Source of the DNA: a virus
Lineage: Duplodnaviria > Heunggongvirae > Uroviricota > Caudoviricetes
IMG/VR virus record: IMGVR_UViG_2861079508_000001
DNA: 64,000 bases
Strand: one strand, 5' to 3'
Part shown: positions 2,892 to 48,300 of the stretch, piece after piece
Position numbering within the stretch: position 1 is the stretch's first letter
Layout: each line of letters starts with the position of its first letter
The notes under the pieces: generated by a model
Databases searched by the model: none
What the model was told of the DNA's origin: nothing
Seen by the model: the letters and a program-made list of their open reading frames with translations, nothing else
Position numbers and translations under genes: made by a program

Positions 2892-6610
<3,719 letters not shown>

Positions 6611-6624
6611 AATTGTAAGTTCCC

Positions 6625-7788: not shown

Positions 7789-7797
7789 ATTCGCTTC

Positions 7798-9126: not shown

Positions 9127-9132
9127 AACGAC

Positions 9133-11764: not shown

Positions 11765-11956
11765 TTAAAGAGAGGTGTACAGCTCGGTATTCAGACCAGT
11801 CCACTGACGGCCAACGCCGACAACTTCACCGATACCTTTGTCTTCACCCAATTTGTTTACTTTGATGCCAACGTACCCAGGCTCAACACGATCGCAGCCT
11901 GTAAGACCCATTGTGCAAACAGCAGCCACGATCACTGCCAGTAAACCTTTCTTCAT
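11765..11956 (-). CDS. small lipoprotein (63 aa)
   Basis: N-terminus MKKGLLAVIVAAVCTMGLTGC has a lipobox. Confidence 0.5.
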   Translation of the reverse strand: MKKGLLAVIVAAVCTMGLTGCDRVEPGYVGIKVNKLGEDKGIGEVVGVGRQWTGLNTELYTSL

Positions 11957-11959
11957 TAC

Positions 11960-12160
11960 TTACTTCCCCTTCGAATTAATTAGTGACTTCAGAAAGTTAC
12001 GACCAACATTAAAGCCGATAACAGGAGCGCCAAAAGCAACAATGATTCCAAGCATTACGGCAATATCGCTTTTAGCCGAGATCAGCGACGGAACCAGCAA
12101 ACAGTAGATGAAAACTACAGATATACCTGTAGCCACTGCCATCAGATAGAGTTTGATCAT
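11960..12160 (-). CDS. small integral membrane protein (66 aa)
   Basis: two hydrophobic helices; 4 bp from the lipoprotein gene. Confidence 0.45.
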   Translation of the reverse strand: MIKLYLMAVATGISVVFIYCLLVPSLISAKSDIAVMLGIIVAFGAPVIGFNVGRNFLKSLINSKGK

Positions 12161-12250
12161 GTGTTTTCCTATGTGGCTATTGTGTGTAGATGGTGAGTAA
12201 GTGTTTATATATTTTCAAGGTATAAAGGCGTCCATTCGGACGCCTGAAAA

Positions 12251-13324: not shown

Positions 13325-13326
13325 GA

Positions 13327-13599
13327 TCAGGCTCCTTTTGTTTCGTTGATTCGTTTTAAAGCGGCGGATTCGTCGAATACAATCGCATCGTGGTTAAGGA
13401 GTCTGGATACACGAGCGAGGATTTTTACGACCTGCTCGCTGACTAATCCAAACTCGCGATCTGTCGCTTTCATTCCGGCAGCGCCTAGAATTGACGGCAG
13501 TGCGATGACAGCGTACTCACCGTGATAAAAGACAATCTCTTTTGCCAGTTGGGCAGGGGTGGTTGTAGCGCCATTGATAATCGATTTAAGCATTAGCAA
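13327..13599 (-). CDS. hypothetical protein (90 aa)
   Basis: ORF between exonuclease and recombinase genes. Confidence 0.35.
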   Translation of the reverse strand: MLMLKSIINGATTTPAQLAKEIVFYHGEYAVIALPSILGAAGMKATDREFGLVSEQVVKILARVSRLLNHDAIVFDESAALKRINETKGA

Positions 13600-24795: not shown

Positions 24796-25182
24796 ATGTC
24801 TGACAACAAGATTGAATTTATAGAAAGTCGCTATGCTGCTTTTATCGCAGGGCTGATTGAATCCTCACCTATGAGTCAGGCCCAAATAGCCAGACTTATT
24901 GGTTATAAAAATGCCAACAACCTTTCTTTAATTAAAAGTGGCAAAATTCCTTTGCCTATCGATAAGGTTCGTCCGTTGGCGCTGGCGCTGGGTATTGAGC
25001 CAAGTCGTCTTATGATGATGGTGCTGGAAGAACGCCAACCTGAACTCGCAGCATTTTTATACAAAGAAGGCACCGCTCCTCTTAACGAGGACGAAAAACA
25101 GGTTCTTGCTGCATATAACGAGCGATTCGGTAAAGAGAAAGGCGCATCACAAAAGGTTGTTGAGGCCATAAAGTCTCTATGA
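24796..25182 (+). CDS. helix-turn-helix (XRE-like) transcriptional regulator
   Basis: 128 aa; SQAQIARLIGYKNANNLSLIKSGK helix-turn-helix; AT-rich 250-bp upstream region. Confidence 0.55.
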   Translation: MSDNKIEFIESRYAAFIAGLIESSPMSQAQIARLIGYKNANNLSLIKSGKIPLPIDKVRPLALALGIEPSRLMMMVLEERQPELAAFLYKEGTAPLNEDEKQVLAAYNERFGKEKGASQKVVEAIKSL

Positions 25183-26280
25183 AAAATTTACACGAATAAG
25201 CTCTGTTGATAGACGATCTCCCTTGAATTTGTGGTCAATTTCGTCTAAATCCGGTTGCTCTACGATTGATGCGATGTACGTCGAGAAACTTTCTAAGGCG
25301 TCTCGCATCTCGTCCATATAATCGTGCCGGTCGTAGACTCGATCTATCCCCTCAAGACTGTGGTTCATGATTTTGCGTGATACCTCCTGGCTTATGCCTA
25401 ATGCTGGGAAGTAACTACGCGCAGTGCGGCGCAAGTCTCGGGGTGTAAATGGCTCAAGCTCCATCAGTTCTGGTCGTTCCAGAATACGACGTAATGCCTG
25501 GGCTATTGCCACTTTAGACATAGGAAGGTCTTTCCCGATTTTTTTATTCGAAGGCACGAGCCACTGGCTGCCTTTACCGTATTCGAACAACTCTTCAATG
25601 CATGTGCGCATTAATGAGCTTAAAGGCAGAGAATGCTCACGGGCAGATTTGTTCCTCTTGCCTTGATTCCAAACCCCACGCTTAAGATTGAACTCACTTT
25701 TTTTAGCCCGCAGTACTTCGTCAGGTCGTCTTGCGGATACAAGACATAGCCTGGCCGCCCATTTTGTACCAGCACACACATTGAAGTAGTCCCATATATT
25801 CCAGAACACCCATACCTCTGCGTCGGTTAGCTTCCGCTCGCGAGGTGTGGGCTTTGCGCCACCGGCAACTTTGTTAAGTGACATATCGTTTAACGGTGAC
25901 ACGTCGATCATCCCCTGGAAGGCGCACCAGCTGAGGAACTGCTTCATCAGAGAGAAAACGCGGCGACCCATAACAATTTTGCCATCCAGTATTAGTGGGT
26001 TGACCAGTTGGTTCACCATGAACCTATTAATATCACTTACTTTTACATCGGCAATGTGCGGCAAAACATGTATCAAAATACAATGAACAGCGATCTCTGG
26101 CCGACGTCTTGTTATCAGCAGAGATAAGCGAGTGAATAACATGAATGCGTCCGAGAATCTCATGTCATTGCTGACCTGGGAGATCATAACGGCCTGCATT
26201 TGAGATGCTCTTTCGAGATACTCAATCGCCTCTTTTGAGGTGTTCTCCGCAGCGCGTGCTCTGTCAAAGCTATTTTTCAT
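25177..26280 (-). CDS. tyrosine recombinase / integrase (lambda Int-like catalytic domain)
   Basis: 367 aa; C-terminal TPRDLRRTARS and NHSLEGIDRVYDRHDY (box II, His, Tyr nucleophile). Confidence 0.7.
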   Translation of the reverse strand: MKNSFDRARAAENTSKEAIEYLERASQMQAVMISQVSNDMRFSDAFMLFTRLSLLITRRRPEIAVHCILIHVLPHIADVKVSDINRFMVNQLVNPLILDGKIVMGRRVFSLMKQFLSWCAFQGMIDVSPLNDMSLNKVAGGAKPTPRERKLTDAEVWVFWNIWDYFNVCAGTKWAARLCLVSARRPDEVLRAKKSEFNLKRGVWNQGKRNKSAREHSLPLSSLMRTCIEELFEYGKGSQWLVPSNKKIGKDLPMSKVAIAQALRRILERPELMELEPFTPRDLRRTARSYFPALGISQEVSRKIMNHSLEGIDRVYDRHDYMDEMRDALESFSTYIASIVEQPDLDEIDHKFKGDRLSTELIRVNFS

Positions 26281-26530
26281 ATGACAATCACCGAGTTACG
26301 CCGATGCACTGTATAAGTAAACAGTATATTAGGCATAGATTCTTATAGGATCAAGAGTAAAAGTAACTCATTTTCAGTAATGATTCCATACATAGTAGGT
26401 ATGGAATCATTGTAGGCCTTTTTTATAAAATCTGTGATTCTTCTCAGGATAAATTATCTAAACTAAAAATTGTGTTTTGTGTTGGCATCTGCTTGAATAG
26501 ACGCATGTTTATTCAGATATGGAATAATCA

Positions 26531-27067
26531 GTGAACAACCAAATTCATTGGGACTACCCATTCTCAGAAGAATTCGGCAGTGGGATGGTACACAGACAAT
26601 TCACTGTGGGAAGCACTATTTATGCCGTTGGGTTTGAACAAATATTGACGATGGATGATTTCACACGTAAGGGAGTTGATATCCTAAATGTACATCCAAC
26701 ATTCCGGTTTCCTCTGAGTGGTGTATGGGGAGTGATTTTTGACGAAATTGACCCTGTAGAAATGGATTTCAAAGGATTTCGGCATATCCAACATCAAGGC
26801 TTGGCAGGTGGTCAAGTGCTTTTGAATGTTGCAAGTATAATCTTTGACCATTATACTGTTTGTAACGCAGGAGCTTATGTCTTCTCCGCCGCAGACGACC
26901 ATCAGCATTTACGCAGAACTGACTTGGTAGACATTTACTGTAAGATACTAGGTCTAAATGGAAAACGTAAAAGTAGATTGTTCGCCAATGGTTTTCCTGG
27001 ATGGGAGGCATACTGTGATGTACCAACAGGAGGAAGAGGCTATGTCGTCACGACTGAAAGTTATTAA
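26531..27067 (+). CDS. hypothetical protein (178 aa, GTG start)
   Basis: plus-strand ORF in a minus-strand backbone; overlaps next small gene by 26 bp. Confidence 0.35.
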   Translation: MNNQIHWDYPFSEEFGSGMVHRQFTVGSTIYAVGFEQILTMDDFTRKGVDILNVHPTFRFPLSGVWGVIFDEIDPVEMDFKGFRHIQHQGLAGGQVLLNVASIIFDHYTVCNAGAYVFSAADDHQHLRRTDLVDIYCKILGLNGKRKSRLFANGFPGWEAYCDVPTGGRGYVVTTESY

Positions 27068-27269
27068 TTATTACCCCACCTCTGCAGAACGTTTGAGCCT
27101 TGAAATGGGCGAAAGACTACAGAAAGCTGCTGGTCAGGATTTAAAGAACAAGTTGGGTTCAGGGGAAATTAAACTGATTAACGGTAAATATGTAGGTGAA
27201 AGCCTGAAAGTTAATAGCACCTCTATGCTAAAAGCGCGGTTGCGTAAAGCGTATATCCCCGCTAAATGA
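27042..27269 (+). CDS. small hypothetical protein (75 aa, MSSRLKVINYYPT...)
   Basis: strong ribosome-binding site AGGAGGAAGAGG before ATG 27042; ends at an intrinsic terminator; track shows a longer ORF from 26958. Confidence 0.45.
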   Translation: MSSRLKVINYYPTSAERLSLEMGERLQKAAGQDLKNKLGSGEIKLINGKYVGESLKVNSTSMLKARLRKAYIPAK

Positions 27270-27298
27270 AAAGGCCTATATGGGCCTTTTCATTTTTA
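27270..27298. terminator. bidirectional intrinsic terminator (AAAGGCC-tatat-GGGCCTTTT plus T-run)
   Basis: read directly between convergent genes ending at 27269 and 27296. Confidence 0.6.
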
Positions 27299-27541
27299 TA
27301 GTGTACTCACCAGCGCCGCAAATTCCGTATACCCCCCAATATGCTCTCCATGTATGAATATCTGAGGTATGGTATCCACTGGTTTACCAACCTGGTTGCT
27401 CAACGTTTCTTTGTTGATCCCCGCAGATGTAATATCTATATACTCATAATCACCGTAGCCATGTCCCTTTAGTTGCTTCGCCAACTCGACCGCACGTTTG
27501 CAGTATGAGCAGTTATCTCGTCCGTAGATAGTGATCGTCAT
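27296..27541 (-). CDS. glutaredoxin-like protein (NrdC/GrxA-type)
   Basis: 81 aa; CSYC active site near N-terminus; thioredoxin-fold size. Confidence 0.7.
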   Translation of the reverse strand: MTITIYGRDNCSYCKRAVELAKQLKGHGYGDYEYIDITSAGINKETLSNQVGKPVDTIPQIFIHGEHIGGYTEFAALVSTL

Positions 27542-27608
27542 AACTTAACAAATACCTTTATAAATATTGATTCGAACATATCAGACTATACTACAAACAG
27601 ATTTTTTT

Positions 27609-27629
27609 GATAAGTATGTAGTAACTTAT
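27609..27629. promoter_or_regulatory. motif B upstream of the AT-rich orphan gene (plus orientation)
   Basis: GATAAGTATGTAGTAACTTAT; AAACAATTG half-site of motif A at 27643-27651. Confidence 0.4.
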
Positions 27630-27714
27630 TGATTGACTAGTAAACAATTGAAGTGATTACGACAATAGATTACAGTAAGGATTGCCTTGAAATGTACATT
27701 TTATAGAGGTTTTA

Positions 27715-28623
27715 ATGATTGGTAAGTTGTCTGATTCTTTGATTGAAAATAAATACAACGAATTTAGAGAAGAAATATCTTTACTTTTTGACTATTTAAA
27801 TCAGATAAATGATACAACAAAGAAAAATATAAAACGTCTTCTTAAAGAAGTGGAGTATGCACAAAATCCAGATACTATTATTAATATTAATGAAACTATT
27901 AAGATTAAGTGTGGCACAACGTTAGCTCGCCATTTATGTTCAAACCCATATACAGGTTCAACATTAGAGATAGGTAACAGCGCCATTGATTTAGAAGAAA
28001 AGATAAGATTGTGTAATACTTTGAAAAATAAACAATATCAGTGGGTTATTACTGAAGCCTATGAGTTACTGGAAGACTATATTGAGGCAATATATGTCTA
28101 TACTGTATGTGTTCGAAATGATTTATGGTCCTCAAGTGATTTTGGTAAGGTTGAAGATGATGAAATTGGGAAAAGGGAAGTTTATTACAGATTATTAAAA
28201 GCAAAAAGTAACCCATCGAAAAAAATAACTAAAATTTTCAGAAATAAAATACCTGGCTTCAAAGAGATAGAAACAAACAACAAGATTGGCAAAAACTATC
28301 GCTTTAACATCAAGCTAATTGAACTACTAAGACATACAATAGTACACAATAGTGGACGATTCAATGATACAGAAAAATTTATAAATAAGGTTTTAGATGA
28401 ATCTGAAATAAACGGTAAGAAAAGAGTTATTGGAGAAAGAGCTGTTAGAAGTTACATTACTAAAGTGCAAGAAGATGATATTGTGATGCTCTTAGAAAGA
28501 CCATCTGAAATTTTAGGTTCTTTTGGTGGGTATTTTAACAGAGCAAAATTTTTACTAAGTGATATTTTAGAATACTCACTAATCATTAAAGAAGAACTAA
28601 AATCATATCTAGGCAATCATTAA
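27715..28623 (+). CDS. AT-rich orphan protein with HEPN-like Rx4H motif; candidate Abi-like defence/anti-defence
   Basis: 302 aa; coding region visibly AT-rich versus flanks; motif LLRHTIVHNSGRF (R-x4-H); own upstream motif and own terminator; function is inference. Confidence 0.5.
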   Translation: MIGKLSDSLIENKYNEFREEISLLFDYLNQINDTTKKNIKRLLKEVEYAQNPDTIININETIKIKCGTTLARHLCSNPYTGSTLEIGNSAIDLEEKIRLCNTLKNKQYQWVITEAYELLEDYIEAIYVYTVCVRNDLWSSSDFGKVEDDEIGKREVYYRLLKAKSNPSKKITKIFRNKIPGFKEIETNNKIGKNYRFNIKLIELLRHTIVHNSGRFNDTEKFINKVLDESEINGKKRVIGERAVRSYITKVQEDDIVMLLERPSEILGSFGGYFNRAKFLLSDILEYSLIIKEELKSYLGNH

Positions 28624-28630
28624 CAAAAAA

Positions 28631-28658
28631 GGGGCCGAAGCCCCTTTGGATTTTGCGC
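28631..28658 (+). terminator. intrinsic terminator GGGGCCGAAGCCCC plus TTTGGATTTT
   Basis: read directly, 8 bp after the 27715..28623 stop. Confidence 0.65.
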
Positions 28659-28720
28659 TTAAAAAAGTGTTGCTAGGATGTTAGCAAGCTATGGTTAAGA
28701 ACGTCTGCCGTAATTGTCTA

Positions 28721-28801: not shown

Positions 28802-28888
28802 TGGCGGAGAGTAATGGAATCGAACCATCATCGCTTGCGCAATGGGACGGTTTTCAAGACCGCTTGAGCACCATGCTCCCTACTCTCC
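28802..28888 (-). tRNA. tRNA-Ser (anticodon UGA), class II long variable arm
   Basis: folded by hand from the reverse complement: acceptor GGAGAGT/ACTCTCC, anticodon loop CTTGAAA, T-loop TTCGATT, 3' CCA. Confidence 0.8.
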
Positions 28889-28987
28889 AGCTATTGTGAT
28901 GGTCGGTGCTGAACTCCGACACAGGGTTGTAGCAAGCCCCGCAAAGCGCGCACTACTGTAGTTGCGGCACATCAGCCTGTGCATTCA

Positions 28988-29070
28988 TCACAACGGTAAG
29001 ATCACTACCTTTCGACCAGTCATTGTGCACATGAACGACGATTAACCGTAATGATCTTATCGTTGTGTTG
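28988..29070. repeat. long hairpin H1 (arms CACAACGGTAAGATCA / TGATCTTATCGTTGTG)
   Basis: inverted repeat read directly between tRNA-Ser and tRNA-Thr. Confidence 0.5.
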
Positions 29071-29115
29071 TGAAGCCAGATGCTTATCTTCTGGTTGCTT
29101 CAAAGAGCTGCACTT

Positions 29116-29208
29116 CCTCACAACGGTAAGAGCACTGGTCTGACTCTATCGATTTACGGCCTTGTGGGTCAGTATCGCCGATTCGCCCAATGCTCTTACC
29201 TGTTGTGT
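29116..29208. repeat. long hairpin H2 (arms CACAACGGTAAGAGCA / TGCTCTTACCTGTTGTG), paralogue of H1
   Basis: inverted repeat read directly; ends at tRNA-Thr. Confidence 0.5.
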
Positions 29209-29284
29209 TGGTGCCGGTTAACGGACTTGAACCGCTGGCCATTCGCTTACAAAGCGACTGCTCTACCAACTGAGCTAAACCGGC
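29209..29284 (-). tRNA. tRNA-Thr (anticodon UGU)
   Basis: hand fold: acceptor GCCGGTT/AACCGGC, D-arm GCTCAGTTGGTAGAGC, anticodon loop TTTGTAA, T-loop TTCAAGT, CCA. Confidence 0.8.
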
Positions 29285-29288
29285 AATT

Positions 29289-29375
29289 TGGTGGGGAGTG
29301 ATGGAGTCGAACCACCCGAGTCGCCATGACAGTAGATTTACAGTCTACACCGCTACCTCTACGGACTAACTCCCC
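29289..29375 (-). tRNA. tRNA-Tyr (anticodon GUA), class II
   Basis: hand fold: anticodon arm CAGACTGTAAATCTG-like (GACTGTAAATC), long variable arm, T-loop TTCGACT, CCA. Confidence 0.85.
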
Positions 29376-29380
29376 TAAAT

Positions 29381-29455
29381 TGGCGATGGTGGGTGGATTC
29401 GAACCACCGACCAGTTGGTTAACAGCCAACTGCTCTACCGCTGAGCTACACCATC
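29381..29455 (-). tRNA. tRNA-Asn (anticodon GUU)
   Basis: hand fold: perfect 7-bp acceptor GATGGTG/CACCATC, anticodon loop CTGTTAA, T-loop TTCGAAT, CCA. Confidence 0.85.
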
Positions 29456-31044: not shown

Positions 31045-32367
31045 TCATTCTTTATCTCCGATTCGATCTTCTGTATCGCGTAAGCAACGCGGCCATTTCA
31101 GTCGTGGGTGGCGTAAGCTGCCATCAGGTGTTTTCTCGTGACAATGAACCTCGACAATACGACCACGGTACTTCTCTTTGTTGTTCCAGATCTCGTCCAG
31201 ATATTTATGCTTAATGCCGCTCGCACGAACGATGACGCCGTTTTCAAGACGAATAACAATTTTTCCAAGCGTGTTGGCAAAACCAGAGTCCGGGTCGCCC
31301 GGCTCAAAATCGATAATTTCACCATCTTCTGAATCTTCGTCTTTTAACTTCCACCAGCTGCGGGTACGTTTAAATTCGTAAACAGAGTTCGGATCTTTGC
31401 CCATCTCCCCTTCTTCGTTATCGTCCAGGCGTTTCATGAAGCGTTCGATGAAGTCTTCGTGGCTATGGATGATGTAGAACGGATGCAGGTGAATGTCTTG
31501 TGCGTAGCCTTCACTGCGATCGTTTTTGAACAACGCCACGAGCATAGCCAGGCGCTCTTTCAGCTTCATACCTGTCTTTGCATACTCTTTGGATTTAGCC
31601 TGTGCTCGCCATTCCGGTAGGAAGAAGTCGAAAACATGATAAATAGCGCCAATTGCCTGCACGTTCTTTTTGCGCAATGCAGATACGGACTGGTTAAATG
31701 AACCGGCTGTGCCTTCACCATCGAAGAAGATGTGTTTGTGGCCTGAAAGTTTGCCTAATTCGAGCATGGCTGGCTTTAGGTGATCGAGAGACGTGATTGG
31801 ATTACCAGTACGAGAAAGGAAGTTAACCTCTTCTTCGTCAACAATAACCTCGCAAATTACTCGCAAACCATCGAGCTTAAGGCTGCCAATCATCGGCCAT
31901 TTTGCTTTAGGGTTTGGCTTGAAGGGGTATTTGTCGCCTTTTTCTTTATACGGTGACGCCAGCTGCACCTCGAATTTCGGAATGGGATTTTCAAAAACCT
32001 TGTTACATAGGCTAATCCCAACGCCAGCTTTCGGATCTTTTAAGAGGAAACGACGGAAGACGTCCTGCCCATCGGCGCACATTGACGCCACGATAGACTC
32101 AACAGCAACTATTGCTGCGTTCCCCGTCAGCTCGCGAGAGGCCAGCTTATTCAGTATATCAATGGCTTTTTCGTCACTTGGGACGGACTCACTAAGCGGC
32201 TCTGCCACTTTGTATTTTTTTACCCCAAAACGGATGAAAGGGTTGAGCATCAATGAAACCATGCTTTGCTCGAAGTCATCCATGTTGGCCAATGCCTCTT
32301 TTTTTGCATTGGTTCCCATAGCTTTCATTTCGTCCAGCTTATGCTTAAGTGCGATCAACTTTTTCAT
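31045..32367 (-). CDS. ATP-dependent DNA ligase
   Basis: 440 aa; adenylation motif I SLKLDGLR (KxDG). Confidence 0.8.
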   Translation of the reverse strand: MKKLIALKHKLDEMKAMGTNAKKEALANMDDFEQSMVSLMLNPFIRFGVKKYKVAEPLSESVPSDEKAIDILNKLASRELTGNAAIVAVESIVASMCADGQDVFRRFLLKDPKAGVGISLCNKVFENPIPKFEVQLASPYKEKGDKYPFKPNPKAKWPMIGSLKLDGLRVICEVIVDEEEVNFLSRTGNPITSLDHLKPAMLELGKLSGHKHIFFDGEGTAGSFNQSVSALRKKNVQAIGAIYHVFDFFLPEWRAQAKSKEYAKTGMKLKERLAMLVALFKNDRSEGYAQDIHLHPFYIIHSHEDFIERFMKRLDDNEEGEMGKDPNSVYEFKRTRSWWKLKDEDSEDGEIIDFEPGDPDSGFANTLGKIVIRLENGVIVRASGIKHKYLDEIWNNKEKYRGRIVEVHCHEKTPDGSLRHPRLKWPRCLRDTEDRIGDKE

Positions 32368-32834
32368 TGTTGTTTTACCTCCATATGTTGATCGATTTGC
32401 TCATGTGTTTCTTTTGTTGTTTCTTCAAGCAACGCCGCATACACGTCAGTGATCGCTGTTTGTGATGTGGTGCTCTTCTTAACCATGCTATTAATCGTTA
32501 CACTGTCACGTTTTCGTTTTATAGTTCTGGCTTGTTTATTCCGTTCTTCAACCTCCTTAATGAGCGCGGTCATATCTTCGAAATACAGAGATTCTCCTTT
32601 ACGAATCTCTTCAACCATCATTTTTAACGCCTTGCATTTGCCTGCTTTAATAGCGGTTGCGCACGACTGGAAAGAAGTTCGAGGAAGACGGTTTTCTTTG
32701 AAGGCAAGAATGGTGTGCTGGCAAACGGAATAGCTGCAATATGTCGACTCACCGTTTATCTTTACTTCCTCACAACGAAGTGAATAACCGTTATTTCCTG
32801 AAATAGAAGGGATTTTTGACAAATCAGCTTTCAC
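32364..32834 (-). CDS. hypothetical protein (156 aa)
   Basis: ORF; stop overlaps ligase start. Confidence 0.4.
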   Translation of the reverse strand: MKADLSKIPSISGNNGYSLRCEEVKINGESTYCSYSVCQHTILAFKENRLPRTSFQSCATAIKAGKCKALKMMVEEIRKGESLYFEDMTALIKEVEERNKQARTIKRKRDSVTINSMVKKSTTSQTAITDVYAALLEETTKETHEQIDQHMEVKQQ

Positions 32835-32900
32835 AATTACCGCCAGAAATAATCTTGTGCTTACCTATCATTATTTGCGTAAAAACGACACACAGAGAGC

Positions 32901-33677
32901 TTACCAACTTCCCCAGCTAATCATCTTGCGCTGATCGCTTTCTAAGCGATAAGGGGCAAGAAGCTCTGTGACATGATTGGTGGCGTATGATTTAGCCTCT
33001 TGCTTAATCATCGGTAATTCGTTAGCAATCCTGACCATCTTCCCAGCAAATTCCGCCATTACGCCATCACAAGCCTTCCCCGCATCAACAACGATATGCA
33101 CAAGATCCAACTGGCTTTTGCACATATCCCAAAGAGACGCGTATTCACTCTCTCTGATTACATTTACGGCACTATTAGCCCCTTTATTAATCAAAACTTC
33201 CAACAGATTTTTCGGGGTAACGAAATCTGCTTTCAGAGATAATGTCTTTTCACCACTTATCGAACGCAAGTACTCTTCGTAGTTATTCTTCATCAAACCG
33301 CTGCTGCGCATTGCTAGAACTGCTTCTTGAATGGCCGCTTCAATAGTTTCGTCGTTTGAAAGACAAAAAACGGTATTTGTGTAGATCACTCTGCCATCAA
33401 GCCATGCTCCAACCTGCACTTTAAGACTGAGCGGGTTTTCTTTGCTAATAAAAACAACTAATGCAGAACGCCGTGCACAAGAAGGTTCGCCCCATACGTG
33501 TAACTCAACCTTCAGATAAGGCAACCCTGGTAGCGGGATCTCGTCCATACGAGCAGCGATATGATTCATTGCTGTATTGACGGCCTTTCCAATGATGTCT
33601 AGTCGACTGCCCTCGCTGATTTCTAAACCTGTTTTATCAATGATGTCACAGGCCAATTTCTGAATTTCGTCTTTCAT
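32901..33677 (-). CDS. hypothetical protein (258 aa)
   Basis: ATG at 33677 checked in sequence; motif B site 45 bp upstream. Confidence 0.45.
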   Translation of the reverse strand: MKDEIQKLACDIIDKTGLEISEGSRLDIIGKAVNTAMNHIAARMDEIPLPGLPYLKVELHVWGEPSCARRSALVVFISKENPLSLKVQVGAWLDGRVIYTNTVFCLSNDETIEAAIQEAVLAMRSSGLMKNNYEEYLRSISGEKTLSLKADFVTPKNLLEVLINKGANSAVNVIRESEYASLWDMCKSQLDLVHIVVDAGKACDGVMAEFAGKMVRIANELPMIKQEAKSYATNHVTELLAPYRLESDQRKMISWGSW

Positions 33678-33719
33678 ACCAACTCCTAGCTAACAGATGA
33701 AAGTATTCTTACAAAAAAC

Positions 33720-33739
33720 TAAGTATGTATCTACTTATC
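33720..33739. promoter_or_regulatory. motif B upstream of 32901..33677 gene
   Basis: TAAGTATGTATCTACTTATC. Confidence 0.4.
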
Positions 33740-33802
33740 ATTTTAGGCGCAATAGTTCCCTATACGAAGATGCCGGGCTTATAGTCTGCCCGGCATTCAC
33801 CA

Positions 33803-34216
33803 TTAATGAGCTACAGCCTCACTGTTGCACATCTTTCTGTAGACCTGCTTATAACGCTGTAAGTCATGAGGATCATTAGGTGCCAACGACTTCGATAGGA
33901 TTTTGTATACCACCCCTTTCGAAAACATGCCCTTTGGCTTCATTTCGAGTTCAACAACATATGAGTGATAGCCCACGTATGCACCAAAGCCATTTTTGGC
34001 GTTCAATTCTCCGCACACAAAGCCTGTCACACTCCCATCGTCATGATCAGTCCTGACAAACTTATCTTTCCTAAACATCACCGACGTGGGATCTTTCATA
34101 TCATCCGCAATTGCTTGTTGGCCCAGAGCAATAGCCTTCTCGTCTGTAGGCTTACACCCCACTAAAGCAAACAAAGACAATAAAGCTCCTGTTAAAATCA
34201 GCTTATTTTTGCTCAT
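33803..34216 (-). CDS. lipoprotein (137 aa)
   Basis: N-terminus MSKNKLILTGALLSLFALVGC has a lipobox. Confidence 0.55.
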   Translation of the reverse strand: MSKNKLILTGALLSLFALVGCKPTDEKAIALGQQAIADDMKDPTSVMFRKDKFVRTDHDDGSVTGFVCGELNAKNGFGAYVGYHSYVVELEMKPKGMFSKGVVYKILSKSLAPNDPHDLQRYKQVYRKMCNSEAVAH

Positions 34217-34449
34217 GTTGGCTTCCCTTTATTTATATTTATCGCAGGTATTAGTTAATCAAAACACGAGCAGTGCCACAATAATTAAATGGCGTACTAT
34301 TTCTTATGGTTATTAGTTTCCTAGTAACTTTACCGACCATAAACTAAATCAACAAAGCTGACATATTAACTAAATTTAAGTACCATTTTTCGCACACTTG
34401 ACACTTGCCGCGTCTAAACTGTTCATCCTATATCAACAGAACAAAAAAT

Positions 34450-35595
34450 ATGAAATACATAAAATCTTCATCGTTGCTGGCATTAACTTTGCTTTTTAGC
34501 TCTGGATTCGTTAACGCAGACAATAAACAAACGCTGATAGAAGCCGCTACCGCAGGGGATACCGCAGCACAAAGTGAGTTAGGGACAAATTATTTTGATG
34601 GTATCAATGGTTTTGATAAGGATGTAGTTGAGGCCAAGAAGTGGATTGATCTCGCTGCAGAAAAGGGAGACAAAGTAGCATATTATGCACTTGGGGTTAT
34701 GTACACATTTGGCGAGGGTGTAGATAAAGACTTAAATAAAGCAGTTGAGTACTACAAACTTGCGGGAGATGCTCGTGAAGGTAGAGCCTATAACAATCTT
34801 GGTGCTATTTATCAAAAGGGGATGCTTGGTAAAGTAGATCATGCGCTCGCCATTAAATACTTCAAACTAGCCTCTGATGCCGGGTATGTTAAAGCTAGCT
34901 ACCTTCTTGGTGCGTATTACCAATATGGTAAAGGTGTACAAAAGAGTTATAAAAAAGCTTTTACTTATTACAAAAAAGCGGCGGATCAAGGTAGTTCAGA
35001 TGGCATGTTCGCATTAGGCACCTTATACGATGACGGTTTAGGTGTTAAACGCAACGATGCCGAAGCAATTAAGTGGTATAAAAAAGCTGCTGAACTCGGA
35101 AACGCCGATGCCATGACAAATCTTGGCATTATGTATGAGTATGGTGAAGGGGTTAAAAAAGACTATAAAAAAGCAGCTGAGCTTTATCAGGCTGCTTGTG
35201 ATAAAGAAGATAAAAATGGCTGTGATTACATTGCAGAACTGAAAGAAAGCGGCAAATATCGAGCGCCGGCTTCCAAAGCCAAAACAAAATCCGCCACCCA
35301 GCGACTTATTGCTAAATCCATTGATAAGGGCGTTAACGCTACATTTACCTGGCAGGGTGATGATGCTACCTTCACCGCTAATGATGGCAAAGTTGACTGC
35401 ACCTTCCTGAAGGATTTTTCAGAGAAAGGAGGCAATCTGGCTACCTCGTTTGTTTGCACCGATAACGTTCAAATCATACTGAAGCAATTCAGAGATACCA
35501 AGAATGCCTACCTCGCGGTAATGACTGACAACTTCAACACAGAAGTTAAATCATTTTCGGTCAATGTGTACGTGACTAATACTGGTTCAAACTAA
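34450..35595 (+). CDS. secreted Sel1-repeat (TPR-like) protein
   Basis: signal peptide MKYIKSSSLLALTLLFSSGFVNA; repeated A..YY.LG.MY..G.GV.KD...A..W Sel1 units; ATG at 34450 preferred over track start 34405. Confidence 0.75.
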   Translation: MKYIKSSSLLALTLLFSSGFVNADNKQTLIEAATAGDTAAQSELGTNYFDGINGFDKDVVEAKKWIDLAAEKGDKVAYYALGVMYTFGEGVDKDLNKAVEYYKLAGDAREGRAYNNLGAIYQKGMLGKVDHALAIKYFKLASDAGYVKASYLLGAYYQYGKGVQKSYKKAFTYYKKAADQGSSDGMFALGTLYDDGLGVKRNDAEAIKWYKKAAELGNADAMTNLGIMYEYGEGVKKDYKKAAELYQAACDKEDKNGCDYIAELKESGKYRAPASKAKTKSATQRLIAKSIDKGVNATFTWQGDDATFTANDGKVDCTFLKDFSEKGGNLATSFVCTDNVQIILKQFRDTKNAYLAVMTDNFNTEVKSFSVNVYVTNTGSN

Positions 35596-36840
35596 TGCTG
35601 CTATGCCTTTTACCTTGCTTAAAAGTTCAAGCTGTCGTGAGTAAGGTTTTGCGCAATAGTAGGCTTTGATAATCTGCCCCGGGGTCGCATCGCCGGGGTC
35701 GAGTCCTTCCTCGCCCAAACATGCAATTTTCACATTAAGACCGATACTGGTCAGTCGCCTGGCTGCGGCCATAGTGTTTCGTATAGCTTGCTTTTCACTA
35801 TCCCACATCATGATCACATTACGTAATCCACGCGCCTTGAGCGTCAGGAACGCGCCCAACTGATCTTCTGCATCCTGAGTGGTGTTACCAGATAGATGCA
35901 TCCCGAACGTTCCTATTGGTTCCACGTAATCGCGTAATGTTTCTTCGTCAAAAATAGCTCGTTTGACCCCCATAACATCGAACGCCCCCTCACAGACAAC
36001 TACAGTCTGTTTGCCGACTGCATTGTGGCCGTTGTAGAGAAACTTACCTGAAGCTGGAAGCTGCATAGGAAAGAGGTAGCGGCGTTCTGCTGTACCGGTA
36101 ATGTCTCGTCCTTGAAATGTCTTCATTACCCCATCCAGATCGTAAACCGGTATCAGTATTCGCATATCGAAAATCTGTCCTTTAACCTGATCTGTATACG
36201 GATCTACATAAGCGTGCTTGCCTTCGACGCAGTATCGTAGGTCAAAATACTTTGCCATTTCAGGCGATATATTTCGTTCAACCAGATAGTCTGGAAGATG
36301 GCCATCTATAGGAAGATCGTAATGACGAGGGAGTGCAACTGGTCCCTCTAACTCGACTGTGCTTGCAAGCACTATCTCTTCTTTCTTTGGTGCCCACCCC
36401 TGGGAAAGAAGAGCGTTCTGCACATATTCCTCGAACTGTCGTCGTGATTTACCGCTGTAGTGCTTGAGGAAGACCAGCTTATTGAACTGAATCTCTTCGG
36501 GATGATCACCAGCGAAGCATTTACCGACGCCACTGGTCAGATTGAAATATACCTTCCAGTTGGAGCTGCCGCATACCGGACACTCCTTGATATTCACTTC
36601 ACGACCGCGAGTACTCACGCCTCCACGTCGATAAACGATACCTTCAGTATCCAACCATTGTTCAAAATCTAATTCGGTAATTAGCTCTTTCAGCTCGCTC
36701 ACGATAATTCCACTTTTAACAGGCAATATTGTGACCAACCTAAATGTTGATATAACATAAAGGCTCATGTGTTTTTCTTTTGTGGTTTGGCAAAAGAAAA
36801 GTTGTTTCACCAATGAATCAAGCGTGGAGGTGTTCTCCAC
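35587..36840 (-). CDS. DNA primase (zinc-ribbon plus TOPRIM)
   Basis: CPVCGSSNW...C..GDH zinc ribbon; TOPRIM-like VVVCEGAFDVMG; start uncertain (ATG at 36768 possible). Confidence 0.7.
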   Translation of the reverse strand: MENTSTLDSLVKQLFFCQTTKEKHMSLYVISTFRLVTILPVKSGIIVSELKELITELDFEQWLDTEGIVYRRGGVSTRGREVNIKECPVCGSSNWKVYFNLTSGVGKCFAGDHPEEIQFNKLVFLKHYSGKSRRQFEEYVQNALLSQGWAPKKEEIVLASTVELEGPVALPRHYDLPIDGHLPDYLVERNISPEMAKYFDLRYCVEGKHAYVDPYTDQVKGQIFDMRILIPVYDLDGVMKTFQGRDITGTAERRYLFPMQLPASGKFLYNGHNAVGKQTVVVCEGAFDVMGVKRAIFDEETLRDYVEPIGTFGMHLSGNTTQDAEDQLGAFLTLKARGLRNVIMMWDSEKQAIRNTMAAARRLTSIGLNVKIACLGEEGLDPGDATPGQIIKAYYCAKPYSRQLELLSKVKGIAALV

Positions 36841-36849: not shown

Positions 36850-38190
36850 TTAGGTAACGTCTAAGATTCGCTCAATGAAGCGCATTTGTTCGAGGTTTTG
36901 TTTAACGCGAATGCTGATCCCTCCCTGCTGGTTACGCGAACCAGCAAAGTAGAGACGAGCCTCTCCTTTCGCTTCTTCTTCTTCGGTTTTGTTGATCGTT
37001 ATTACCAGGTCAGCAATACGTACTTTTTCGATGTTGTCGGCAGCGTGCATCATTGTGGCAACTTCTGACGCGCCACCTTCACGGTTTGTTTGCGACGCCG
37101 TGATACCAGCAACGTTATGCTTGTCATAAAGAGCACGTAAATCGGTGTAGATACTACGAATGTTGGCGCGATCATCACGAAGGTCATAACTGGCACGCAT
37201 CAAATCTGCGTAGTCGACAACAACCATGTCAGGCACCATGCCATTGGCTTTCATACTGTTAAGCATACGGTCCAGATCTGCCGGTGACATACTTCCTGAC
37301 GGACGCTCAACAACCCACAAACTACCAATCCCCTTCGTGGCTCCCAACTCTGCCAACTTGCGATGAACTTCATCGCGCCGTTCCACCAGCTTGGACATTT
37401 CCGTCTCCGACAATCTTGCATCAAAACGGTCGGACAAAATGGTGGTGTGAACCTCCAGCGAGAGATACAGAACATTGTAGCCAGCAAGCGTAGCGTTTAT
37501 GGAAAACTCACCCATTGCGGTCGATTTACCGGATTTAGCAAAACCCATGAAGAGCACCATTTCGCGCTTTGCCCAGCCTTTTTGGTACAGCAATCTATCA
37601 AGCAGAGGGAGTCCAGTTGTAATGCTGTTTGGCACATACTCCTCTGAAGCCTCATATTCACGCGCTTTCAATCGCTCACTTGCGGAGGTGTAGTAGTCAT
37701 AGATTCCGGTCGCTTCGTTCGAGCCTATCTGCTGAACCTTGGCCATGATTGCCATCGCCCCCTGAAAGTCGCCCTTCTCTTTCAGTTCAGCAGCTTTAAT
37801 CAGAGCATCATCAAACGCTACACTTTTTGCGAATGTGGATACCTGGTCAACCATGTACGAGGTATCAGACAATTTTTCTGCAAGGATGCGCTTAAACGCA
37901 GCAACAACATCCGGGAAGAGTTCCTCACGGATGGTCTTATCGCGTTTCGCACGCTTAAGCATATCCAGAATCGCAGATGAAGAAGGCGCGCTCTTGTACA
38001 TACGGTAATAGCCCGAAACCATATTAACCAATATGGCATTGGCCGCATTGGCAAATTGGCTAGGCACAACCAGATCTCCCGCACGAGTAAGAAACTCGTG
38101 ATCACGACAAAAATATGCCGTCAGTCTGTTCTGGAAATCTTCATCAAACTCTTCGGACAGCCCGCGTCCTGTATGGCAAAGTTCGGTCAT
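36850..38190 (-). CDS. DnaB-like replicative DNA helicase
   Basis: 446 aa; Walker A GFAKSGKST in RecA-like C-terminal domain; ATG at 38190 with AAGGAAAG ribosome-binding site. Confidence 0.8.
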   Translation of the reverse strand: MTELCHTGRGLSEEFDEDFQNRLTAYFCRDHEFLTRAGDLVVPSQFANAANAILVNMVSGYYRMYKSAPSSSAILDMLKRAKRDKTIREELFPDVVAAFKRILAEKLSDTSYMVDQVSTFAKSVAFDDALIKAAELKEKGDFQGAMAIMAKVQQIGSNEATGIYDYYTSASERLKAREYEASEEYVPNSITTGLPLLDRLLYQKGWAKREMVLFMGFAKSGKSTAMGEFSINATLAGYNVLYLSLEVHTTILSDRFDARLSETEMSKLVERRDEVHRKLAELGATKGIGSLWVVERPSGSMSPADLDRMLNSMKANGMVPDMVVVDYADLMRASYDLRDDRANIRSIYTDLRALYDKHNVAGITASQTNREGGASEVATMMHAADNIEKVRIADLVITINKTEEEEAKGEARLYFAGSRNQQGGISIRVKQNLEQMRFIERILDVT

Positions 38191-45301: not shown

Positions 45302-48300
45302 TTATTCTTTAGGTGAATTTAACTTCGTTTCAAGCTCCTCAACCCTTTTGGTCAATTGCTGAATATGATGAATGAGTGGTACAACCAAACGCTCATACAT
45401 CACTCCTTCAGCGACCATACCATTTGAGGAAATATCTTCTGGAGAATCATTATTTGTTGGTTCACGCCAATGGACATATTGCGGGGCAATCTCACCAACC
45501 TCTTCAGCAATAAGGCCGTAATACCCCCAATCCTTTCGGTCACCTCGACAAATTGAACGATACCAAACAGGTCTTAATGACAAAAGTTCATCAGCATATC
45601 GATCTTGTAATGTTTCAATATCCTTTTTATAGCGCCTTGAAGAGGTTGAACGCCAAACTGTATTGATACCTGGGTTTGGATCAATGTACATATTGGCACC
45701 GCTAGTAGTTGTGCCAATATCCCATATAGCAAACCCTCCACTACCGCCTGATTTGACAACCAGTGTTTCAGCAATAATATCCAGGTTGCCACTATAGCCT
45801 GTCAGTGATGATCTGCTTGCATAGGAACTTAGAAGGTTTGTTACCTCTGTTTTCGTGTAAGCATTAAGGTTAGCCGCAGTCAAAGTTATATCGGCAGAGC
45901 CATCAAACGCCACACCAGCAATTTTCCTTGCTGTCTGCAATTTTGTGGCGGTTGCGGCATTACCAGTAGTGTTCTGATTACCAGTTGTATTCACACCAGG
46001 GATTGAATCCTTAGCGGTATATACCTGCGCCCACGCTGACCATGCCGCACCTGTGTTATCTCTTCGTGAGCGAATGAAAACTGGCGCATGTGCACCGCTC
46101 GTACCACTCCAGCCAATAAGCAACTCTCCCTCACCAGCAGCACTCGCACCTTTCATGTGCAATACGTTGCCATACATGGTCGGGTAGCTATTGTTGTACG
46201 CCTCGTACATTTGAATGCCAGCAGTGCCTTGAGTAGAGCCGCTTAACGCCGTAACTCGGCCACGAGATACCAATGTATTAATGTTGATATCGCCTGAGCC
46301 ATCAAACTTAACACCATTGATGTTTCTCGCTGTTTGCAACTTCGTAGCTGTTGAAGCATTACCGTTCAAACTACCATTTACGCCACCAGTCACATTTAGT
46401 CCATTACCAATTGATACAGCACCGCTGGTATTATTAATTGTAATAGGTCGCAAACCGTTCCATGAACCTAATGTGTCTCCTGATGCTGTTAGCATGAAAT
46501 ATGTGTTCGATCCATCATTACGGATAAAGAACCCAAAGCTACCGTAAGCAATGCGGAAACCATTTGCATATTTTGAAATGATCTCGCCAGAAGATGTCAA
46601 ACCTCCAGATAATGTACCACCGGTAAGAGGTAATGCACCGACATCAGAGGCTGTTGGTTTGTTTTTCGTGTTATATACTCTTCGCCATCCCGGAGAATAA
46701 TCTGTGCCATTAAATACATAGATAAACTCCGCATTAGTGAGAGCACCAGAGACACTCGTCGTTGTGGCCGTTGTTATACGGATCGTATAATTGTTTGAGC
46801 TACTACCGTTATTAAATACCTCTATAACAGCTCCTGCCAATGGAATAACGCCACAACCAGTTTCACTATTTGGTATGGTTGCACTATTGGCATAGGCCCA
46901 CGCACATCGAGCAATCCATGACTTTGTGTTAAATGCTCCATTATTTTGCAATAACGTCACTAACTGTGCTGTTGTTATTGCTCCGCCATTACTTCCTGTA
47001 GTTAACCAACCAGTAGGAGATGCCGGGCAACCTATATTTGCTGGCGACAAGGAAATATTTGCCGAGCCGTCAAACGACACCCCATTGATAGTACGCGCAG
47101 TCTGCAACTTCGTAGCAGTAGCCGCGTTGCCCGTTGTATTCTGATTACCAGTCGTATTAACACCTGGCAAATTAATATTCGCAGTACCATCAAAGCTCAC
47201 GCCGCCGATAGTTCTTGCCGTCTGAAGTTTTGTAGCAGTTGCAGCATTACCAGTGGTGTTCTGATTACCCGTAGTATTTACACCTGGAAGGTTGATATTT
47301 GCAGAACCGTCGAAACCAACTCCACCGATAGATCTTGCCGTCTGCAATTTCGTTGCTGTACTTGCATTACCATTTAATGTTCCGGTGATCCCACCAGTAA
47401 CAGACAACGGACCTGAAACTGTTCCTCCGGTTGTTGGCAGTGCTCCAATATCTAACGGCGTCGGTTTCTGATGTGTGCTATACATCGTATAAACAACACC
47501 ATCGGTAACGCTGGAAGGCTTACTAGCTGAATATGTTGGCGATGTATAAATAGAAACTGTCGCATTTGCAGTACAATCCCAATGGATATTTACACGAGTC
47601 GCATAATTGCCAATCTCAACGTAAATATCATATGTATCGCCGGATGTGTTGATCCAGGCGAAATTCGTTAATCCGACAGCTGTACGCTTCCACAAAGCAC
47701 CTGTAATCCCTTTGGGGTTTCCATTGCCTGCTCGTAGAACCAGTTCTGAAATGCCTGCCTGATGTGGGGAGCCGACGTTGTAACCAGCGCCACCAATCAA
47801 TGCGATGTAAACGATGGAACTCGCTTGTGGCATGGTAACCGTAGCCAGTTTGAACCACCCTGCCCCGCCAGAGAAAGACATCGTTACTGAATTTAAAGTA
47901 CCAATATCTTTCGGCGTTAATGTGATATCCGCAGTCAGTGCTTTACCGTTAACTTTTCGGTTAGATGGCACCCTGCTATTCGCATTGTCATTGGCTGCTT
48001 TAACTGCTTTTGGCGTTGCGGCCAGCGATTCACTGGTGCTGTCGACAGCACTGCTAAGTTTCACAACACCTTTAGTTGTAAGGCTTGCGTCTTCCATCGC
48101 AACTGCACCGGCAATCTCTTCAGCACGATCAGCAGCAGCTTCCGCACGGGTCGCAGCGGATTCAGCAGCAGTTTTGCTCTGAGATGCTGCCGTCGCACTG
48201 CCTGCCGCCTCTGTTGCTTTCGTGGATGCCGTCGTGGCGCTGCCCTTCGCTGCTGACGCCTGTCTGGTCGCCTCATCTTTTGAAGCAGACGCAGATGATG

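Follow-up and report, generated by a model that had tools for sequence, protein, structure and literature searches.

Genes that are inserted between the backbone genes of some phages and absent from otherwise collinear relatives are described by the moron concept, which is reportedly due to Hendrix and colleagues; examples of such morons, or of lysogenic-conversion genes, are lom and bor of lambda and old, tin and Z/fun of P2. SSU5-like phage-plasmids are known to transport resistance genes, for instance CTX-M-15 in the case of pECOH89. Amongst proteins built from Sel1 repeats, periplasmic precedents include ExoR (which binds a sensor kinase), MotX (flagellar complex), AlgK (polysaccharide-export complex) and MerG (permeability determinant), whilst EsiB of E. 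coli binds secretory IgA, with Helicobacter Hcp and Legionella LpnE acting similarly. EsiB (c5321) consists of Sel1-like repeats only, yet has been detected on the bacterial surface (PMC3735183). Sel1-like repeat proteins also serve as immunity factors: PA5086–88 of P. aeruginosa confer immunity to the periplasm-targeting type VI secretion system (T6SS) effector PldB/Tle5b (PMC6099711), and Sel1E of K. pneumoniae, which has a non-repeat C-terminal extension, confers immunity to the T6SS effector VgrG4 (PMC7108748). Furthermore, the phage superinfection-exclusion lipoproteins Llp (T5) and Cor (phi80, N15 and HK022) block receptors (PMC9586334); the receptor concerned is FhuA. In the literature on SSU5, pHCM2, pECOH89 and phage-plasmids, we found no paper mentioning Sel1 or lipoprotein genes in SSU5-like elements.

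The window analysed here, a stretch of 64,000 nucleotides, lies on an E. coli SSU5/pHCM2-like phage-plasmid that is 100 % identical to NZ_CP080257.1. The original prediction had described a plus-strand Sel1-repeat gene with a signal peptide and a divergent lipoprotein gene within the replication module of a phage-plasmid, and both genes were recovered beside the primase gene, with helicase and ligase genes nearby: the lipoprotein gene at 33803..34216 (−) and the Sel1-repeat gene at 34450..35595 (+). Using blastn against L001, with which homology ends at 33738 and restarts at 35603, we delimited an accessory cassette of 1864 bp (33739..35602), with a GC content of 41.1 % compared with 45.3 % in its flanks. 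At this site phage Cyrano has 30 bp in place of the 1864 bp, and as such the two cassette genes are accessory. On the right the site is bounded by the backbone DNA primase gene (35587..36840, −), whose C-terminal residues are kept though diverged (...SKVKGIAALV-stop here vs ...SKVLGIKALS-stop in Cyrano), and on the left by a backbone gene of 258 aa (32901..33677, −; phrog_4248), the 5′ half of which is itself mosaic. Searching the borders of the cassette, we detected neither flanking repeats, whether direct or inverted, nor att sites or a transposase; insertion most likely proceeded via homologous exchange through the flanks.

Amongst complete E. coli genomes, the backbone was present in 252 of 5,426 (∼5 %) and the cassette sequence in 61 of these 252 (24 %); its 62 places in complete E. 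coli genomes were all on plasmids, with 0 being chromosomal. Similarly, 52–54 of ∼216 E. coli-type plasmids carry the cassette, whilst four sequenced phages lack it (Cyrano, CMS-2020a, PhiR41_1 and SSU5). The original prediction was to be abandoned should the Sel1 gene prove to be a universally conserved backbone gene; as it is not universal in the backbone, this test leaves the prediction standing. A backbone role, in replication or in the virion, would be in keeping with the location of the cassette genes inside the replication module, and with the 9 nt by which the 3′ ends of the Sel1 and primase genes overlap, a convergent arrangement at the primase stop codon whose conservation extends from E. 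coli as far as Enterobacter. Such a role is nevertheless extremely improbable, given that ∼75 % of the E. coli relatives and all four phages named above do without the cassette, and that its products are predicted to be exported, not cytoplasmic.

In other relatives the same site has different contents. We found the Sel1 gene alone in L003 (E. coli), L021 and L007, a set that includes Enterobacter and Citrobacter; the lipoprotein gene alone in L020 (Salmonella); a fimbrial chaperone-usher operon together with Phd/Doc in L002; and, in SSU5, an unrelated gene of 321 aa. SSU5-like phage-plasmids have a cargo hotspot at this post-primase site. Because it is elsewhere empty, or holds the lipoprotein gene alone, the Sel1 gene alone, both genes or other cargo, the two genes are independent accessory genes ('morons') and not replication machinery; both are present or absent amongst otherwise collinear relatives, and both are inserted between backbone genes. 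The pair does not constitute a unit, as each gene occurs alone at this site in other genera. Accordingly, an obligate two-component system of both proteins, acquired and acting jointly (for example, an anchored receptor with a soluble partner), is very unlikely and largely refuted by distribution, even though the genes are adjacent, diverge from one intergenic region and are found together in most of the E. coli plasmids and IMG/VR contigs that bear the cassette. In addition to the solitary genes listed above, Cronobacter and Citrobacter plasmids carry lipoprotein homologues with no Sel1 C-domain match found, and the Sel1 homologues on the chromosomes of L005 and L006 have no homologue of the lipoprotein in their vicinity. 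Moreover, the two proteins are not homologous, kinship of the lipoprotein family with the Sel1 C-domain being ruled out by hhalign (probability 0.5 %).

The lipoprotein gene encodes 137 aa and matches phrog_2320 (E-value 1.9 × 10−39), which is annotated as 'unknown function' in PHROG. At the N-terminus, MSKNKLILTGALLSLFALVG followed by CKP, a positively charged n-region is succeeded by a hydrophobic core and the lipobox L-V-G-C (...LFALVG-C21), in agreement with the pattern used for Lgt/LspA substrates (an N-terminal signal ending [LVI][ASTVI][GAS]C); the lipobox Cys (Cys21), the predicted site of acylation, is invariant across seven homologues. In E. coli the residue after the lipobox Cys governs membrane sorting (the +2 rule), and from the Lys at this position outer-membrane sorting is predicted. 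A Shine–Dalgarno-like AAGGGAAG is located 6 nt 5′ of the start, and directly 3′ of the stop codon is a GC-rich hairpin with a 9-bp stem (33770..33796, −; RNA fold −25.6 kcal/mol, z = −2.95), which is terminator-like but without a clear U-tract and was passed over by a consensus terminator scan. Alignment of homologues revealed a conserved Cys68/Cys130 pair and the motif KDPxS...G.VCG.VNAKNxxGAYxG. Neither the lipoprotein nor its core domain had a match in Pfam, NCBIfam, PADLOC or PDB sequences, and its AlphaFold2 model (pLDDT 47) was too poor for comparing folds. Relatives of the lipoprotein are encoded in the P2-like phage SEN5, between ogr and int, and in temperate siphophages, where they separate the tail genes K and I. 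Some carry fused SPOR or PG_binding_1 domains, and these fusions point to a link of the family with peptidoglycan rather than with an outer-membrane receptor.

The two genes diverge from an AT-rich intergenic region of 233 bp (34217..34449; 33 % GC). Here the strongest sigma-70-like candidate for driving the Sel1 gene (34358–34386; CTGACA-17-TACCAT) has a 9/12 consensus match, and the cassette genes may have their own promoter and terminator, the promoter-like sites being consensus matches only, at a frequency not above that of shuffled sequence. The Sel1 gene is the sole plus-strand gene within ∼9 kb of minus-strand backbone. Its mechanical ORF opens at a TTG (34405); the true start is most likely the ATG at 34450, yielding 381 aa, which agrees with the 381-aa cluster P0009 (240 member sequences) and with the RefSeq gene models of relatives. 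No obvious Shine–Dalgarno sequence is present upstream. The protein matches phrog_8741 over its full length (E-value 4 × 10−209). Judged by sequence rules only, its N-terminus, MKYIKSSSLLALTLLFSSGFVNA followed by DNK, is a typical Sec type-I signal peptide (aa 1–23; 34450..34518, +) with cleavage after VNA, in a region of low pLDDT (residues 1–21), and a hydrophobic N-terminal leader was found in all full-length homologues. The description of the protein as 'secreted' thus stands as far as predicted export across the inner membrane, but goes beyond this support where extracellular release is meant.

The mature protein begins with a Sel1-like repeat solenoid (aa 24–266; 34519..35247, +). Pfam Sel1 (PF08238) was matched with an E-value of 5.6 × 10−53 and 175.9 bits against a cut-off of 30.7, in six stretches, whilst AlphaFold2 places 14 helices, or seven hairpins, across residues 23–266 at pLDDT >90; the modelled fold is the right-handed alpha/alpha hairpin solenoid of the Sel1-like repeat family. 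Cys250 and Cys258 are the only Cys of the repeat region and both lie in the last hairpin. Both the Sel1 protein and the lipoprotein have conserved Cys pairs, which could form disulfide bonds were the proteins located in an oxidising compartment. The best NCBIfam matches of the Sel1 protein were MerG (78.3 bits, cut-off 350), MotX (58.1, cut-off 330), AlgK (57.2, cut-off 700) and ExoR (34.8, cut-off 450); since all of these scores are far under the cut-offs, we rejected membership in any of the four families. A match to PtuA (PADLOC 2.0, 21.7 bits) was of the repeat type, with no stretch passing alone, and was regarded as spurious; the PADLOC 2.0 defence models gave no meaningful match for the Sel1 protein and none for the lipoprotein.

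A non-repeat C-terminal domain of ∼120 aa had also been proposed, and corresponds to residues 267–381 (115 aa). This region comprises a disordered linker of 18 aa (aa 267–284; 35248..35301, +; pLDDT <50 at residues 275–284), which is the least conserved segment (22–56 % aa identity to homologues), and a family-specific all-beta domain of ∼97 aa (aa 285–381; 35302..35592, +), with eight sequential strands at 285–376 and invariant Cys317 and Cys336. Its profile had 0 matches to PDB sequences at E ≤ 10, and DUF3617 was rejected as a relative, the similarity being insignificant (Pfam E = 0.17, in 3 of 12 members only). In an exhaustive C-terminal profile search, five 50 %-identity clusters covered the C-domain and generic Sel1 proteins flooded the rest, because two rows of the search alignment (A2) still held a repeat, and weaker relatives with the C-domain only were possibly hidden as a result.

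Comparison of close relatives set the two parts of the protein apart. On backbones that are ≥95 % identical, the central Sel1 repeats are mosaic, with 50–66 % nt identity (dS ∼1.6), whilst the C-domain is 95–99 % identical (dS ∼0.1). The number of repeats also varies, with 5–7 recognised by Pfam in proteins of 345, 381 and 417 aa. Amongst the E. coli elements, conservation of the C-domain largely reflects ancestry recently shared with the backbone, given the dS of ∼0.1, and not selection alone. These patterns bear on the idea that the Sel1 protein modulates or scaffolds a host envelope machine, binding a resident periplasmic partner and rewiring the physiology of the host envelope to the element's advantage. 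A constant C-domain would be expected if it docked onto a conserved host protein, and MerG, MotX, AlgK and ExoR, weak as the matches are, all come from this functional sphere. However, the four scores lie far below cut-offs of 330–700 bits, and a conserved partner leaves unexplained why deeply diverged repeat alleles are swapped on near-identical backbones; we therefore consider modulation unlikely.

Homologues of the Sel1 protein occupy further prophage slots: at the ends of lambdoid prophages, following the tail-fibre genes (L008, L009 and L048, with a pseudogene in L017), within or beside P2-like tail clusters (L012 and L044), in an IS-flanked islet (L015) and, in a single case, in a contact-dependent inhibition (CDI) orphan-toxin region, amongst orphan CdiA fragments only (L005). 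Such moron slots, together with the mosaic repeats, suit a role in conflict at the envelope, be it bacterial or phage-related, no less than the originally suggested 'host interaction or signalling', which echoes the generic reputation of Sel1 proteins. As prophage moron slots often hold virulence genes too, context cannot separate protection from host interaction. The latter would make the Sel1 protein a colonisation factor that binds an animal-host molecule from the cell surface or from outer-membrane vesicles, a lysogenic conversion towards immune evasion or adhesion. In line with this, EsiB is surface-detected despite having Sel1-like repeats only, the same hotspot houses a fimbrial operon in some relatives, and the hosts of cassette plasmids include gut, urine and blood isolates. 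Conversely, similarity to EsiB, HcpC and LpnE is of the generic Sel1-repeat kind (25–32 % identity) and excludes the C-domain, and the protein is without a surface-export device or anchor. Furthermore, the carriers of cassette plasmids show no pathotype signal, their sources being chicken, pig, cattle, dog, soil, water and human, and homologues exist in plant-associated or environmental Pantoea and in Leclercia. A host-interaction role is, as such, doubtful.

The explanation that we tentatively favour, at a probability of roughly 0.4, is that the cassette consists of two independently acquired morons whose products are envelope binders protecting the carrier lysogen or modifying its envelope, by superinfection exclusion or toxin immunity. 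We infer expression during lysogeny, periplasmic residence and a protective function for both products. In the lysogen, each gene would be driven by a promoter of its own, its product binding stoichiometrically in the envelope and so shielding the carrier cell. The lipoprotein, with its predicted anchorage on the periplasmic side of the outer membrane, may be an exclusion factor associated with peptidoglycan or with that membrane. Soluble and periplasmic, the Sel1 protein would have a different build, joining a protein-binding alpha-solenoid of about seven Sel1-like repeats via a flexible linker to a constant, disulfide-containing beta domain. Its variable solenoid might capture an incoming or variable periplasmic protein, for example an entry component of a superinfecting phage, or alternatively a periplasm-acting toxin delivered by a T6SS, CDI or a bacteriocin, whilst the constant beta domain could dock onto an invariant envelope component; as the fold of this domain is unclassifiable, the docking role is a guess. 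A bolder version, which we think rather unlikely, holds that proteins combining Sel1 repeats with this beta domain make up a new family, restricted to Enterobacterales, of exclusion or immunity factors that phages carry and that act in the periplasm, in which the beta domain is docked and swappable repeats set the phage or toxin protein targeted, the post-primase site being a dedicated exchange hotspot for envelope 'armour'.

The post-primase hotspot shows annotators where to seek lysogenic-conversion genes in SSU5-like elements. Should either of the two proteins turn out to block phages or contact-dependent toxins, a periplasmic, repeat-based specificity module would join the prophage-encoded protection systems, with a bearing on host-range prediction for phage therapy.

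Set against the described systems, the lipoprotein resembles Llp and Cor in being small and phage-encoded and in its predicted place on the outer membrane, facing the periplasm, and its relatives are embedded amongst the tail genes of temperate siphophages; no sequence relationship to Llp or Cor was, however, detected via the phrog_2320, Pfam, NCBIfam and PDB searches. The Sel1 protein shares with EsiB, HcpC/HcpB and LpnE a signal peptide and Sel1 repeats, and with Hcp a Cys pair predicted to bridge the last repeat. In contrast, EsiB contains 11 repeats but lacks a beta domain, and Hcp has a disulfide in every repeat, whereas the Cys pair of the phage-plasmid protein is confined to the last one. 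With PA5086–88 and Sel1E it has in common a Sel1-like repeat solenoid, which in those proteins neutralises an incoming toxin, and variable paralogues; Sel1E likewise has a non-repeat C-terminal extension, but one described as loop-rich and without a recognised domain, unlike the eight-strand beta domain found here. The resemblance to these immunity proteins is weaker than that to generic Sel1-repeat proteins. Their genes adjoin the cognate effector gene, whilst no such effector or toxin gene (tle5/pldB, evolved vgrG) lies beside the Sel1 gene in the window, L003–L009, L011–L012, L015, L017, L021, L044 or L048. Finally, the cassette differs from known morons in residing in the replication module of a phage-plasmid and not near tail, lysis or integration genes, but is like them in its patchy presence in close relatives, its position between backbone genes, its apparent transcription against or independently of the backbone, a GC content under that of its surroundings, its putative envelope products and homologues in lambdoid and P2-like moron slots. 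The cassette is well defined as an accessory, and its genes are prophage 'extras' of a commonplace type.

The window belongs to an SSU5/pHCM2-like phage-plasmid of E. coli; the 113-kb plasmid NZ_CP080257.1 is 100 % identical to it across 33600–35700, and the flanks of this stretch match the phages Cyrano, CMS-2020a and PhiR41_1 and, at a greater distance, SSU5. The backbone here lies on the minus strand and includes an ATP-dependent DNA ligase (31045–32367), two genes without known function (156 aa and 258 aa, the latter at 32901–33677), a DNA primase (35587–36840) and a DnaB-like helicase (36850–38190). The 258-aa gene and the primase gene are separated by a minus-strand lipoprotein gene of 137 aa (33803–34216) and a plus-strand Sel1-repeat gene. 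The latter was present as originally predicted, with its start moved: it most likely begins at ATG 34450 and specifies 381 aa, in line with a protein cluster of 240 members and with the RefSeq gene models of relatives.

The two genes occupy an accessory cassette. Homology to Cyrano, which carries nothing at this post-primase site, ends at 33738 and restarts at 35603, with 1864 bp standing in place of 30 bp. The primase C-terminus is kept at the border, where the Sel1 stop region and the primase 3′ end overlap by 9 nt, as they do in Enterobacter plasmids. No repeats, att-like sequences or transposase were found at the cassette borders, and GC content is 41.1 % in the cassette vs 45.3 % in the flanks. 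The 5′ half of the neighbouring 258-aa gene (33100–33700) is only 74–89 % identical to plasmids L003 and L004, and the DNA to its left (32300–33000) is 95–100 % identical to them; 33100–33700 is a second recombination patch, directly adjoining the cassette. Among ~216 E. coli-type SSU5-like plasmids in PLSDB, 52–54 hold the whole cassette. The primase–helicase backbone was detected in 252 of 5,426 complete E. coli genomes, and universal conservation in the backbone, which the original prediction had named as what would refute it, was not seen: cassette sequence was found in 61 of the 252 (24 %; at least 80 % of the cassette in 44 of these). All 62 cassette places in complete E. coli genomes are on plasmids and none is chromosomal; the C-terminal domain of the Sel1 protein was found in 0 of 50,697 phage records.

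The contents of the post-primase site differ among relatives: Sel1 alone in E. coli pRM13322 (345 aa) and in Enterobacter/Citrobacter (417 aa), the lipoprotein alone in Salmonella NZ_CP149263 (same orientation as the primase), a fimbrial chaperone-usher operon with Phd/Doc in pYPE3-114k, and SSU5_041 in Salmonella phage SSU5. Because of these differences, the lipoprotein and Sel1 genes are regarded as independent cargo, on this distribution neither a functional pair nor backbone. An obligate two-gene system of lipoprotein and Sel1 protein is largely excluded by the distribution and very improbable, and a backbone role is more improbable still. SSU5_041 (321 aa; 1023–1988 of the SSU5 locus, on the opposite, minus, strand) looks cytoplasmic, is unrelated to the cassette genes and gave no hit in Pfam or PADLOC; it could be an accessory or defence gene not yet characterised. 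On the SSU5-like E. coli plasmid NZ_CP041451.1 (locus L002, 1–4880), the fimbrial operon, of chaperone-usher-adhesin type, and the Phd/Doc toxin–antitoxin pair lie left of the primase gene, and the last ~30 bp of the Sel1 gene still adjoin it (match from window 35573); this remnant suggests that an earlier Sel1 cassette has been replaced.

The Sel1 protein has a Sec-type signal peptide (...GFVNA/DNK) and six stretches of Sel1 repeats (Pfam, E = 5.6 × 10−53). It had been described as secreted, which holds only as far as export across the inner membrane. In an AlphaFold2 model (18-sequence alignment, mean pLDDT 82), residues 23–266 form 14 helices, making up seven hairpins (pLDDT >90), residues 267–284 a disordered linker and residues 285–376 eight consecutive beta-strands at moderate confidence (55–75). 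The C-terminal domain (aa 285–381) contains the invariant cysteines C317 and C336 and, over 18 sequences, 32 invariant columns. Even at E ≤ 10 the PDB yielded no sequence match to it, and it matches no family in Pfam; DUF3617 was rejected as a relative, its E-value of 0.17 in the Pfam comparison not being significant. Only five clusters covered the domain in an exhaustive search of 1.84 billion representatives, which was compromised by a Sel1 repeat still contained in the query.

Two E. coli plasmids with a flanking backbone 95–100 % identical to that of the window served for comparison. The C-terminal domain showed 95–99 % nucleotide identity and a dS of 0.10–0.12, the same as the backbone, and the central Sel1 repeats only 50–66 % identity and a dS of ~1.6 (omega 0.13–0.16), with breakpoints falling within the repeat array. 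Gain or loss of one repeat unit yields Sel1 proteins of 345, 381 and 417 aa. In IMG/VR contigs the three allele classes recur, again deeply diverged, on primase backgrounds 96–100 % identical, and across genera amino acid identity to the window's protein is 64–73 % in the C-terminal domain, 50–58 % in the repeats and 22–33 % in the linker. From these identities we conclude that the repeat cassette is swapped by recombination whilst the C-terminal domain stays constant. Contact of the solenoid with a variable partner, and of the beta domain with a constant one, would give such a mosaic.

Full-length Sel1 homologues with this domain are found in Enterobacterales only (Escherichia, Enterobacter, Citrobacter, Pseudenterobacter, Leclercia and Pantoea). 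The domain is encoded on 90 PLSDB plasmids (59 Escherichia, 22 Enterobacter, 8 Citrobacter and 1 uncultured), and in all records examined or listed the gene adjoins the primase gene of ~110-kb elements. By gene context, the non-plasmid homologues occupy typical moron positions: after tail-fibre genes at lambdoid prophage ends (L008, L009, L048 and, as a frameshifted copy, Leclercia L017), between tail tube and tape-measure genes of a P2-like prophage (IMG/VR contig L044), beside tail-fibre assembly and invertase genes of another (L012), between yciB and yciA of E. whittamii in an islet flanked by IS elements (L015), and, in Pseudenterobacter, among orphan CdiA fragments (L005). L044 encodes both the Sel1/beta-domain homologue (2564–3400) and a PG_binding_1 protein (6047–7288, between tail fibre and sheath genes), two envelope-directed extra genes within one tail operon. 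In L005, from the Pseudenterobacter timonensis chromosome (5768–13894), the CdiA fragments carry Fil_haemagg_2 and PT-VENN, a NERD protein and IS remnants lie nearby, and a small ORF directly downstream of CdiA-CT is in the immunity-gene position; this is the sole context hinting at a link to contact-dependent inhibition.

The lipoprotein gene has a good Shine–Dalgarno sequence, and its product begins with MSKNKLILTGALLSLFALVG-C, a lipoprotein signal with the lipobox LVGC; Lys at +2 predicts sorting to the outer membrane under the E. coli +2 rule. The ORFs, lipobox, Pfam matches and AlphaFold2 model thus bear out the predicted Sel1-repeat gene with signal peptide and non-repeat C-terminus, and the divergent lipoprotein. 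The lipoprotein matches phrog_2320 (E = 1.9 × 10−39), a PHROG family without known function, and has no relative in Pfam, NCBIfam, PADLOC or PDB. Its homologues, on 100 plasmids and in 14 phages, have in common the motif KDPxS...G.VCG.VNAKNxxGAYxG and a conserved Cys pair. In the P2-like phage SEN5 the homologue lies between ogr and int, and in siphophages of E. coli and Pseudomonas between tail genes K and I. Fusions of the domain to SPOR or PG_binding_1 domains, seen in phages of Pseudomonas and Paracoccus, link the family with the peptidoglycan layer.

Elsewhere in the window, a low-GC island (26500–28700; 0.36–0.40) holds plus-strand ORFs of 178, 103 and 302 aa with no Pfam or PADLOC match; adjoining a minus-strand integrase (25177–26280), it is probably a further cargo module beside the tyrosine recombinase and tRNA cluster. 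Four minus-strand tRNA genes (28802–29455) specify Ser-tga, Thr-tgt, Tyr-gta and Asn-gtt; as the Cyrano annotation has only tRNA Ser, Thr and Asn, tRNA-Tyr is seemingly extra. The ALIL pseudoknot (Rfam RF01497), by which IS3-family transposases signal their frameshift, is matched with 120 bits at 60883–60999 on the plus strand, within raised GC (0.54) at 60–62 kb; an IS element is thus inserted in the phage-plasmid. In a minus-strand, tail-fibre-like ORF of 1385 aa (45302–49459), a low-complexity stretch with much Ala, Ser and Thr runs for several hundred residues and explains a GC spike (0.595) and strong AT skew (−0.34) at 48–49 kb.

The Sel1 gene is the sole plus-strand gene in ~9 kb, and the AT-rich divergent intergenic region upstream of it holds one 9/12 sigma-70-like site, such sites being no commoner than chance. 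Each of the two genes would be expressed autonomously in the lysogen, and each product, whose conserved Cys pair is compatible with disulfide bonds, may be a periplasmic binder that protects or remodels the carrier envelope. By analogy we tentatively favour protection (probability about 0.4), as exclusion of superinfecting phages or as immunity to toxins that act in the periplasm: the Sel1-repeat proteins PA5086-88 confer immunity to PldB, an effector that targets the periplasm (PMC6099711), Sel1E is an immunity protein to VgrG4 (PMC7108748), and Llp is a phage exclusion lipoprotein (PMC9586334). A host-interaction role like that of EsiB, which lies exposed at the surface and binds secretory IgA (PMC3735183), seems unlikely. 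Slightly less likely again is that a resident envelope machine is modulated, along the lines of ExoR, MotX, AlgK or MerG.

RefSeq already annotates both genes ('tetratricopeptide repeat protein' and 'hypothetical protein'), PHROGs clusters both proteins with no function assigned, and our literature search found no paper on either gene in SSU5-like elements. The present analysis demonstrates that the post-primase site is a hotspot for several cargoes and that the two genes are independent, and it adds the family-specific beta domain and the mosaic repeat cassette. Of modest importance until a phenotype is shown, the Sel1/lipoprotein cargo is of the same kind as the prophage morons that encode envelope proteins.
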